DNA of 49,763 nucleotides from positions 416-50,178 of the forward strand of contig PLYC01000023.1 of NCBI GenBank assembly GCA_003151625.1, in the 5' to 3' direction. The DNA comes from Candidatus Doudnabacteria bacterium (lineage in GTDB: Bacteria > Patescibacteriota > Doudnabacteria > UBA920). Below, in pieces: positions 703-25,134 of this stretch. Each line of letters starts with the position of its first letter. Position 1 is the first letter of the stretch. The position numbers and the translations under genes are program-made. Below the pieces are notes generated by a model. That model had not been told where the DNA came from and did no database searches. It saw only the letters and a program-made list of their open reading frames with translations.

Positions 703-776
703 TTGATTTTATATTCGCAGCCATTCATTGATTAGTTTCATTGATTAGTTTCATTCGCAGATCGATACATTTCAAC

Positions 777-796
777 AAAAAAACCGCTTTCGCGGT
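777..796 (-). terminator. intrinsic terminator (attenuator) in the 23S leader
   Basis: ACCGC-GAAA-GCGGT followed by TTTTTT on the minus strand; its 5' arm can alternatively pair with 826-837. Confidence 0.75.
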
Positions 797-824
797 CATG
801 TAGGGCACAATTTAAATTGGCCGT

Positions 825-869
825 TTACATAAACCGCAGATTGCTTAAGATTAAGTTTAGTTTTAACAT
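825..869 (-). CDS. putative 14-aa leader peptide MLKLNLILSNLRFM
   Basis: ATG TTA AAA CTA AAC TTA ATC TTA AGC AAT CTG CGG TTT ATG TAA; SD AAAGGAG (878-884) lies 8 nt upstream, just after the promoter. Confidence 0.65.
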   Translation of the reverse strand: MLKLNLILSNLRFM

Positions 870-899
870 AGACTTTGCTCCTTTATTAAGCGTATAGCT

Positions 900-928
900 A
901 TTTTAAATCATTCGGGCTTTGGTGTCAA
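900..928 (-). promoter_or_regulatory. sigma70 promoter for the leader/23S transcript
   Basis: TTGACA-17 nt-TAAAAT on the minus strand, with an AT-rich UP-like tract upstream. Confidence 0.8.
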
Positions 929-1154
929 GGGGAATTTGATTAAAAAAATGTTATTATTTTTGCCTTATTTAAAGGCTTTTTTTAAGCCCTAAAAAGACTC
1001 TTCCACACCTTTCCCACAGTTTCAAATGCAGAATGTTGAATGATGATTTCAGAATGACTGCAATTATGCTGCATTCTGCATTCTAAATTCTGCATTTCTT
1101 GTATTTGACTCTCTCTGCGTTCTGTATTATTTTTCGCAGAAGGAGGACGCAAAC

Positions 1155-1553
1155 ATGAGCGTCAAAATCGACTTTCGCACAGTCAACAACGGACTGTGCT
1201 GGATATGGCCGGACGGATCACCTTGGGTGAAGGATCGCGTCTTTTTCGCGAAGCCATACAAACCGCGGTCTTTGGAAGGCCATTGACCGAAGCATAATTC
1301 GAAGGAAAAGCTGCAAAGCCACCCGGTAAGGCAGTTAATTTACTGCTCAATCTTTCTTTCGGACGTGACCTACATGGACAGTTCCGGAAAGGGGGAGTTG
1401 GTCTCCGGCTTCACATTAGTCGTCAATAATGGTGGCCAGCTACAACTGCTCAACCCTGTCGGGCGTGTCAGGGACGAATTGCAAATGAGCAAATTCAATA
1501 CCGTCTTCAAAATCCACAAAGACGAAGCCGCCGCAATCCGCTCCTTTCAGTAG
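1155..1553 (+). pseudogene. STAS-domain anti-sigma factor antagonist, disrupted
   Basis: AGGAGG SD then ATG. Pieced across frames it reads MSVKIDFRTV/TVLDMAGRITLGEGSRLFREAI...*...LLLNLS/DVTYMDSSGKGELVSGFT...LLN...DEAAAIRSF: two frameshifts, one internal TAA, and the STAS DSSG motif. Confidence 0.8.
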
Positions 1554-1590
1554 GAGCACGCTATGACCCCCGTACCGCAAACCGCGGGCC

Positions 1591-1630
1591 GCAAGCATCA
1601 CCCCGATGTGCGGCCCGCTTTACTTTTTTT
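1591..1630 (+). terminator. intrinsic terminator after the STAS pseudogene
   Basis: GCGGGCCGCA...TGCGGCCCGC followed by a T-rich tract. Confidence 0.6.
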
Positions 1631-1747
1631 CAAACTAATATATAACGACCTGTAAAATTCACGGCCGTGAAAATCACAGGTCTTTTTTTGACTTCTAATT
1701 TTATTTTACGTTTTAGATACAATTGTAGCTAAAACGTAAAAAGGTTA

Positions 1748-24498: not shown

Positions 24499-24573
24499 GG
24501 GTGTGTAGCTCAGTGGTAGAGCACGTCACTGATAATGACGGGGTCGCAGGTTCGATCCCTGCCACACCCACCA
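24499..24573 (+). tRNA. tRNA-Ile(GAT)
   Basis: GGGTGTG/CACACCC acceptor stem, CGTCA-CTGATAA-TGACG anticodon arm, GTTCGATC T-loop, encoded CCA. Confidence 0.97.
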
Positions 24574-25058: not shown

Positions 25059-25134
25059 GGGCCGTTAGCTCACTTGGTAGAGCGCCACATTTGCAATGTG
25101 GAGGCAACCGGTTCGAATCCGGTACGGTCCACCA
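25059..25134 (+). tRNA. tRNA-Ala(TGC)
   Basis: GGGCCGT/ACGGTCC acceptor stem with G3:U70, CCACA-TTTGCAA-TGTGG, GTTCGAAT, CCA. Confidence 0.97.

Follow-up and report, generated by a model that had tools for sequence, protein, structure and literature searches.

Introduction

In the attenuators of amino-acid operons, the position of the leading ribosome on a short leader open reading frame (ORF) selects the RNA structure that forms, and a ribosome that has reached the leader stop codon favours termination. The trp, his, leu, thr, pheA and ilv attenuators of enterobacteria have in common a promoter-proximal short ORF, an intrinsic terminator ahead of the regulated gene and an antiterminator, one strand of which also belongs to that terminator. 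At the attenuator of Escherichia coli ampC, ribosome binding gives growth-rate control, while pyrBI and pyrE use UTP-sensitive coupling. Here we describe the leader of a stand-alone 23S rRNA gene, located at positions 777–928 (minus strand) of a 49,763-nucleotide (nt) stretch of Candidatus Doudnabacteria DNA that we refer to as the window. We consider it probable that this leader is a ribosome-mediated leader-peptide attenuator, placed between the sole recognizable promoter and the 23S gene, with read-through as its default.

rRNA is the archetype of an RNA that is not translated. Control of its synthesis is generally placed at the promoter, through ppGpp, NTPs and DksA, with antitermination protecting the transcript. 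In the 1980s, Nomura and co-workers reportedly proposed that an excess of translation-competent ribosomes represses rRNA synthesis (the ribosome feedback model), and this feedback in E. coli was later attributed to promoter control by NTPs and ppGpp. The accessible text of one source places Patescibacteria among the clades with unlinked rRNA genes, and regards linkage in a single operon as the means by which 16S and 23S rRNA stay matched, so that unlinked genes call for another explanation (10.1101/705046).

Results

Anatomy of the 23S leader

The window makes up most of one contig of a 1.5-Mb genome that is assembled in 34 contigs and rated 100% complete. Its 23S leader has the following parts, given in the direction of transcription.

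928–900, minus strand: sigma-70-type promoter with −35 TTGACA (928–923), a 17-nt spacer and −10 TAAAAT (905–900); consensus score 11/12
884–878, minus strand: Shine-Dalgarno (SD) sequence AAAGGAG, 8 nt upstream of the ATG
869–825, minus strand: leader ORF of 14 codons, ATG at 869–867 and TAA at 827–825; predicted peptide MLKLNLILSNLRFM with 5 Leu
837–827, minus strand: segment 2, the antiterminator 5′ arm GCGGTTTATGT, with a GCGGT core identical to the terminator 3′ arm
822–804, minus strand: inner hairpin of the antiterminator, GGCCAAT-TTAA-ATTG-T-GCC, from folding
801–792, minus strand: segment 3, the antiterminator 3′ arm ACATGACCGC, whose last six bases (797–792) are the terminator 5′ arm
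797–777, minus strand: intrinsic terminator GACCGC-GAAA-GCGGTT followed by seven T (783–777), from a stem-loop search
227–1, minus strand: 5′ end of the 23S rRNA gene (Rfam LSU_rRNA_bacteria, model positions 1–230, 158 bits), cut by the window and contig end

A promoter scan of positions 1–1500 ranked TTGACA-17-TAAAAT first among promoter-like sites, again at 11/12, and the leader transcript is predicted to start near 893. The 16S gene in the window ends in ...GATCACCTCCTTTCT, of which CTCCTTT is complementary to the AAAGGAG of the leader over 7 nt. The final four codons of the ORF and its stop codon are contained in the antiterminator 5′ arm. Antiterminator and terminator are mutually exclusive because bases 797–792 belong to both.

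The initial annotation, which was made from the letters of the sequence alone, had named these parts, and the analysis bears it out: the promoter lies at 928–900 with a score of 11/12, the SD sequence finds its proposed 7-nt match in the CTCCTTT of the window's own 16S 3′ end, the 14-codon ORF with five Leu occupies 869–825, and the terminator stands at 797–777. It had also stated that no ORF of at least 60 amino acids (aa) lies downstream on the minus strand; between the terminator and the start of the 23S gene at 227, none longer than 27 aa was found. Neither the gathering-threshold nor the E-value searches of Rfam assigned the 23S leader to a family. The E-value search, run on positions 1–1400, returned only chance-level matches within 777–928; the best, isrK, scored 16.5 bits where the gathering score is 50.

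The antiterminator is the more stable structure and covaries

The minimum-energy fold of the RNA from 900 to 770 is the antiterminator (−31.1 kcal/mol, z = −2.5), and the terminator is not formed in it. In this fold GCGGUUUAUGU (837–827) is paired with ACAUGACCGC (801–792) around the inner hairpin at 822–804. The same relation holds among homologues. In each of 39 distinct sequences, the RNA running from the GCGG core to the terminator 5′ arm forms a single long hairpin worth −14 to −21 kcal/mol, compared with −4 to −10 kcal/mol for the terminator alone. When both structures can form, 37 of the 39 have the antiterminator as their minimum-energy fold. The mutually exclusive antiterminator proposed in the annotation is thus the minimum-energy fold both in the window and in nearly all of its homologues, and it covaries.

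In a model-guided alignment of 53 sequences, 80% of the cells in the antiterminator are paired, and two-sided changes occur at 13 of its 18 base pairs, including six of the seven pairs of the inner hairpin. The covariation score of the antiterminator is 0.234, against 0.120 for shuffled alignments (none of 500 shuffles reaches the observed value), and controls in which the partner strand was slid gave at most 0.070. Within the genus of the window the sequence of the inner hairpin is near-invariant, and between families only its pairing is conserved. The terminator sequence GCGGTTTTTTT is invariant in an 18-sequence alignment. We also looked for a counterpart of segment 1 of the trp leader, and found no conserved sequence complementary to the 5′ arm in the ORF body or the 5′ untranslated region (UTR) of the aligned homologues.

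The layout recurs across the class, once per genome and upstream of the 23S gene

We use class for the 146 species genomes grouped with the window genome and f1 to f6 for its families; these are labels of the present analysis. A BLAST search with positions 228–1154 matched 17 of 24 other genomes of the family and none of 16 genomes of other families, and the best-conserved block coincided exactly with the ORF 3′ end, the hairpins and the terminator. The 23S 5′ end lies 320–570 nt downstream in 16 of these 17 loci, and the seventeenth locus ends too early. All loci with flanking sequence that were checked have a 23S gene downstream. An exact-pattern scan of the species genomes gave 35 loci. A covariance model (R1) found one copy in the window genome, matched 76 of 146 genomes of the order, and matched none of four loci upstream of 16S genes.

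A second covariance model (R2), built on 53 sequences, matched 92 of the 146 genomes, where misses carry little weight because many class genomes are fragmented and the 23S gene may be unassembled. By family, the matches are 69/94 in f1, 5/10 in f2, 14/25 in f3, 1/9 in f4, 0/2 in f5 and 2/5 in f6. The element is present in a single copy per genome, except for one genome with a weak second match. The initial annotation had suggested looking upstream of the 23S genes of relatives for a conserved SD sequence, short ORF and covarying terminator/antiterminator; the layout recurs in these 92 class genomes, with the short ORF present in 49 of 50 distinct loci, the antiterminator covarying over 53 sequences and an SD-like sequence present in 22 of 50 leaders.

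The leader ORF is kept open at a near-constant length

Among 50 distinct loci, 49 have an ATG-initiated ORF that ends in the hairpin, and the fiftieth locus is truncated. The ORF has 14 codons in 43 of the 49, 13 in two, 15 in two, 16 in one and 10 in one, and the distance from the end of the −10 element to the ATG is 30–42 nt in most of the 50. Between the ATG and the GCGG core of the 39 distinct sequences (350 codons), there is no in-frame stop codon, while the two other frames have 86 and 26. The peptide body drifts in sequence without insertions or deletions. Taken together, these features are strong indirect evidence for translation of the leader ORF.

The 86 stops per 350 codons in the +1 frame (830–866 and homologues) compare with about 8% expected from base composition by our own arithmetic. 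The excess arises largely because TTA (Leu) so often precedes A. AT-rich coding with many Leu, Lys and Asn codons may produce it as a side effect, or selection against frameshifted read-through may be responsible.

An SD-like 4-mer precedes the ORF in 22 of the 50 homologous leaders. In the window genome such 4-mers occur upstream of 14% of 873 long ORFs, against a background of 12% inside the same ORFs, which is a rough estimate since each ORF start was taken as the most upstream ATG. The annotation's remark that most genes here have no clear SD sequence agrees with these figures, and the genome seems not to make general use of Shine-Dalgarno initiation, although its 16S rRNA keeps the CCUCC tail.

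In family f1 the three C-terminal residues R-F-M are conserved. Their codons form the antiterminator 5′ arm, and the one member with an altered final Met codon has a matching change in the partner strand. Leaders of f2, f3 and f6, and of four genomes outside the class, encode unrelated peptides and form helices of different sequence, with the frame shifted relative to the GCGG core. The same divergent members nonetheless retain the consensus promoter, the ATG, 10–16 codons, the stop codon and the 23S gene downstream. Across families, the stop codon falls between 3 nt before and 15 nt after the start of the 5′ arm. It thus stays in or next to that arm despite the changed peptide, helix and frame, as expected if the place of the terminating ribosome is the selected feature. 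The act of translation, and not the sequence of the peptide, is on the best reading what matters.

Leu accounts for 25% of codons 2–11, against 11% expected from base composition, and is commonest at positions 5–8. Tandem Leu occurs in 14 of 49 peptides and three consecutive Leu in one. Members outside the class have 0–3 Leu per leader peptide and share no residue with the class peptides. No arrest motif is shared between families in the peptides compared (those of f2, f3, f6 and the four genomes outside the class).

The one conserved promoter precedes the leader ORF

A perfect TTGACA-17-TAnnnT promoter lies upstream of the ORF in 48 of the 50 distinct loci; the remaining two are truncated at this point. 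A second promoter between the terminator and the 23S gene was considered as a conserved feature and rejected: sites scoring at least 10/12 occur in only six of the 50 loci, at unrelated positions and never with a perfect −35 element. In other Patescibacteria, the terminator is often only about 100–200 nt from the 23S gene. With no conserved downstream promoter and so short a distance, 23S transcription must therefore pass the terminator. The Rho RNA-binding domain (PF07497) was not found in the window genome, rated 100% complete, which makes intrinsic termination the plausible mode there. A NusB gene and a RelA/SpoT homologue are present, and stringent control at the promoter may coexist with the attenuator.

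In two metatranscriptome runs of one study, exact contigs cover 213–571 and 311–463 at a depth of about 2–10, and none is exact over 572–900; these contigs show neither starts nor ends, and the gap at 572–900 speaks neither for nor against read-through.

Downstream of the terminator, the boxA-like motifs mentioned in the annotation were located with a motif regex.

702–690, minus strand: boxA-like motif GTTCTTTAACTAA
533–521, minus strand: second boxA-like motif GATCTTTAAAAAT

This narrow regex has a match anywhere in the leader at only 12 of the 50 loci, which indicates loose conservation.

The layout is found beyond the class

Outside the class, the covariance model matched four of 144 genomes. 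In a phylum-wide sample, 23S 5′ ends were located in 113 of 151 genomes, and the 900 nt upstream were taken for 80 genomes outside the class, a set that omits the four model-found genomes, the weakest 23S matches and contigs that are too short. We screened these loci with a homology-free scanner that requires a hairpin followed by at least six T, an ATG-initiated ORF of 8–20 codons, and a stop region paired with the terminator 5′ arm in the minimum-energy fold. The scanner matched 18 of the 80 loci on the sense strand, none of the 80 on the antisense strand and none of the 80 after shuffling, and it recovered 46 of 50 class members as a positive control. The matches comprise 17 of the 57 loci without a tRNA or 16S end upstream and one of the 23 loci with a sense tRNA or 16S end upstream. 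When applied to both strands of the window genome (3 Mb), the scanner flagged 15 of 221 terminator-like sites, mostly at gene 3′ ends, and the sole one of these 15 with a consensus promoter is the 23S leader. This genome-wide background predicts about 0.4 matches in 72 kb.

One genome outside the class (G202, locus L191) has the ORF–terminator layout before a tRNA-Ala gene that is followed by the 23S gene. The device can therefore also gate a tRNA–23S unit.

The 16S gene has a different leader

The 16S gene lies about 49 kb upstream of the 23S gene on the same strand, and the distance is 48–54 kb in two better-assembled relatives, so that the unlinked layout is conserved. The genes of tRNA-Ile(GAT) (24499–24573, plus strand) and tRNA-Ala(TGC) (25059–25134, plus strand), whose usual place is the 16S–23S spacer, stand together on the strand opposite the rRNA genes, about 24 kb from each.

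Contig C18, 639–824, minus strand (locus L110, 615–815; homologues L107–L136): 16S leader of the window genome

Downstream of the 16S promoter, TTGACA-17-TATAAT, comes a conserved, structured leader some 200 nt long (fold z = −3.5), which ends in a hairpin and a run of 6–8 T, several hundred nt before the 16S gene. Among 94 other genomes of the family, BLAST found this leader in 38; in Rfam, neither the gathering-threshold nor the E-value search gave it a family. Its terminator-like hairpin lies inside a domain closed by a long-range helix, UCAAUUUUG/CAAAAUUGA, whose 3′ strand is beyond the T run. The leader keeps a GGAG, followed by an A-rich stretch without a start codon.

The initial annotation had also proposed to look for the ORF layout upstream of 16S genes. 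The scanner found it in none of 30 such regions and no conserved ORF is present there, and with R1 also matching none of its four 16S-upstream loci, an ORF device like that of the 23S leader was rejected for the 16S gene. The 16S leader could act as another sensor, of a different kind, on the small-subunit rRNA, or it could be just a processing domain.

Other features near the 23S leader

Just 3′ of the terminator (732–757, minus strand) is a tandem direct repeat of two copies of GAAACTAATCAAT, with CTGCGAAT on either flank. An imperfect palindrome rich in TGCAGAAT and ATTCTGCA occupies 1023–1099, just upstream of the A/T-rich flank of the promoter. It matches itself inverted, as well as short stretches on other contigs of its own genome and of one relative, and looks like a small dispersed repeat. 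Words related to it, CTGCGAAT and CGCAGAT, recur in the 23S and 16S leaders. From the end of proA (1748) to the 23S promoter, roughly 800 nt (929–1747, minus strand) contain no ORF longer than 62 aa on either strand, and a plus-strand terminator-like hairpin followed by a T run is found at 962–976.

Discussion

Proposed mechanism

With its recurrence in relatives, its open frame and its covarying helices, the layout of the 23S leader is, as judged from sequence, far beyond chance. The course of events set out below is predicted in several respects: that ribosomes translate the ORF, how far a ribosome reaches over the RNA, which way the control runs, that the polymerase pauses at the inner hairpin, and which physiological signal is sensed. 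The polymerase would start near 893 and transcribe a short 5′ UTR and the 14-codon ORF. On a leader without a ribosome, the antiterminator (837–792) would form first, being far more stable, and the polymerase would pass through the boxA-like leader into the 23S gene; read-through would be the default because the antiterminator is complete before the terminator 3′ arm is made. A ribosome at the stop codon would cover or unwind the GC-rich core of the 5′ arm while the polymerase makes the next 50 nt or so. With the 5′ arm masked, the 3′ arm would pair with the GCGGT that follows, and transcription would terminate at the T run.

A ribosome with a stop codon in its A site encloses about 12–13 nt downstream and about 15 nt upstream. 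At the leader stop codon it would thus reach from the GC-rich 5′-arm core across the middle helix to halfway through the inner hairpin. It would leave free the terminator hairpin, which lies 31–44 nt past the stop codon. The last T of the run is about 50 nt beyond the stop codon, approximately where the polymerase would be with a ribosome close behind it. Termination would require that a ribosome load and translate 14 codons during about 92 nt of transcription, and the inner hairpin may pause the polymerase until the ribosome melts it.

The terminated fraction would rise steeply with the initiation rate of competent ribosomes. On this mechanism 23S output would therefore fall as translational capacity rises, which amounts to negative feedback. 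Since a ribosome needs both subunits to reach the stop codon, a shortage of 50S subunits would favour read-through. Sensing of limiting 50S is one possible physiological reading, and by sequence it is inseparable from other causes of slow or rare translation.

The initial annotation had already read the leader in this way, with a ribosome at the stop codon masking the antiterminator and an untranslated leader allowing read-through. The open ORF of fixed length, the position of its stop codon, the covariation, the default fold and the lack of any other conserved promoter all favour that reading. The genome as a whole is in keeping with it, with no Rho RNA-binding domain found, a NusB gene and a RelA/SpoT homologue present, and boxA-like motifs beyond the terminator.

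Alternative explanations

The leader could instead be an independent small gene that yields a transcript of about 115 nt (a small-protein mRNA or a small RNA), with the 23S gene expressed from a separate, unrecognized promoter downstream. The canonical terminator fits such a gene. It is difficult to reconcile with the promoter-like sites between terminator and 23S, which are found in only six of 50 loci and are conserved in none, or with the 100–200 nt that often separate the two in other Patescibacteria; nor is the peptide conserved between families. A plain terminator has no need of a covarying, more stable competitor hairpin, and the element occurs only upstream of the 23S gene and once per genome. 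We regard this explanation as very unlikely. The role of the ORF is also at issue if the leader is an attenuator controlled by a protein or ligand, in which the inner hairpin serves as the binding site for a ribosomal protein, an assembly factor or a small molecule that chooses between antiterminator and terminator, and the ORF is incidental. Attenuation mediated by ribosomal proteins is known elsewhere, according to the available portion of one source (PMC4538822), the inner hairpin is near-invariant in the genus of the window, and in these organisms the 16S gene, too, is preceded by a structured leader, one that has no ORF. An incidental ORF would scarcely remain open in 49 of 49 complete loci, without a single in-frame stop in 350 codons and with an invariant ATG and near-fixed length. 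Between families the inner hairpin keeps its pairing and not its sequence, and no Rfam family matches the leader. Control of this kind appears most improbable.

The same hardware could also respond to stalled ribosomes, caused by antibiotics or translation stress or, in a narrower variant, by scarce charged tRNA-Leu, with early arrest freeing the antiterminator and raising rRNA output. This is the logic of antibiotic-inducible attenuators with upstream ORFs (uORFs), as far as the accessible text of the reports describes them (PMC4191407, PMC6851288, PMC4335068). The enrichment of Leu in codons 2–11 (25% against 11%) is in its favour, and from the geometry a stall at or before codon 8 would expose the GCGG core. 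The families have no arrest motif in common, tandem Leu is confined to 14 of 49 peptides with three consecutive Leu in one, members outside the class have 0–3 Leu, and more rRNA under amino-acid starvation would be physiologically backwards. Stalling as the signal is unlikely on this evidence, and it is compatible with the ribosome-mediated attenuator proposed above, since both act through the same switch. Leu or tRNA-Leu sensing, which the initial annotation had offered as an alternative, has proved weak: Leu is enriched within the class, though tandem Leu is infrequent, Leu is scarce or absent outside it, and the sign is wrong for starvation. We have accordingly reduced Leu-specific sensing to a minor variant.

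Several points count against a translated, ribosome-controlled attenuator. The alignments used for the pair counts (A2 and A3) were fitted to the proposed structure and are hence biased towards it, and plain RNAalifold on a MAFFT alignment gave only the terminator and a 4-pair stem. This shortfall arises because the variable inner hairpin is misaligned, and it is the reason why per-sequence folds and model-guided alignments were used. Model R2 was trained on class sequences, so that only its additional matches are independent. Of the 18 scanner matches outside the class, nine pass the strict promoter regex, and the count of 18 in 80 was made without a filter for ORFs that are the tail of a longer gene, for which the background of about 0.4 matches in 72 kb stands in. 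No SD sequence precedes the ORF in 28 of the 50 leaders. The conserved R-F-M of f1 is compatible with a function of the peptide, and equally with RNA pairing. The kinetic window would be tight, with initiation and 14 codons to be fitted into about 92 nt, and polymerase pausing would be needed. Raising rRNA output when translation slows would oppose the stringent logic in starvation; as a conjecture, the RelA/SpoT homologue could override the attenuator at the promoter under those conditions.

Implications

If true, the gating of an rRNA gene by a translated leader would add a new control point to rRNA synthesis, and would supply a concrete mechanism for the long-standing notion of ribosomal feedback on ribosome production. 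We tentatively suggest, as a possibility that goes well beyond the attenuator itself, that Patescibacteria measure their translational capacity on nascent pre-23S RNA by means of a 14-codon test ORF, where a finished ORF would abort transcription and an unfinished one would let the 23S gene be made. Such a device would serve organisms in which 16S and 23S have separate transcripts, and would be ancient enough to have spread across the phylum, with the ORF-less 16S leader maybe serving as a matching sensor for the small subunit. The bacteria that carry the element are ultra-small; their phylum is hard to culture and its gene regulation almost unexplored. The element is short, modular and easily moved to reporter or cell-free systems, and might offer synthetic biology a compact sensor of free-ribosome load. 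It also bears on how unlinked 16S and 23S genes stay in step, a matter raised in the accessible text of 10.1101/705046.

Comparison with known systems

The 23S leader shares its layout with the attenuators of amino-acid operons and differs from them in having no run of regulatory codons, in producing an rRNA instead of a biosynthetic mRNA, and in belonging to no Rfam leader family. It also has no segment 1 and thus no 1:2 hairpin, and for this reason an untranslated 23S leader would read through instead of terminating. With ampC, pyrBI and pyrE the 23S leader would have in common that output is set by how promptly a ribosome engages the nascent leader and not by a specific amino acid. In those systems the ribosome suppresses the terminator hairpin and more ribosomes give more read-through, whereas here it would suppress the antiterminator, with the sign reversed. 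To our knowledge, no described attenuator combines the absence of regulatory codons, the absence of segment 1 with read-through as the default, and an rRNA target.

A full-text literature search, with coverage outside subscription journals, returned no description of an rRNA gene under the control of a leader peptide or attenuator. A Corynebacterium paper in which 'ribosome-mediated attenuation' and 'rRNA transcription' both appear was considered as a precedent and set aside, as the former term, in the text available, concerns amino-acid operons. Antibiotic-inducible attenuators such as those of bmrCD, yxjB and mef/mel-msrD resemble the 23S leader in combining a uORF with alternative structures, an unfinished uORF leading to read-through in the parts of the reports that are accessible (PMC4191407, PMC6851288, PMC4335068). 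They control resistance genes through drug-dependent arrest peptides, unlike the 23S leader with its rRNA target and no shared arrest motif.

The boxB-boxA-boxC antitermination system of rRNA operons (NusB/E/A/G, SuhB) is likewise based on a cis element in the pre-rRNA leader that alters elongation or termination (PMC4807359, PMC10250234). As described in the available text of these sources, it is protein-mediated and makes the polymerase resistant to termination, whereas the attenuator here precedes the boxA-like motifs and would impose a conditional stop before such a complex could load. The boxA-like motifs are a separate element downstream of the attenuator and not an alternative identity for it. 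With the ribosome feedback model of Nomura and co-workers the idea is the same, and the sequence of the 23S leader suggests that here the sensor would be a direct, physical one on the nascent pre-rRNA.

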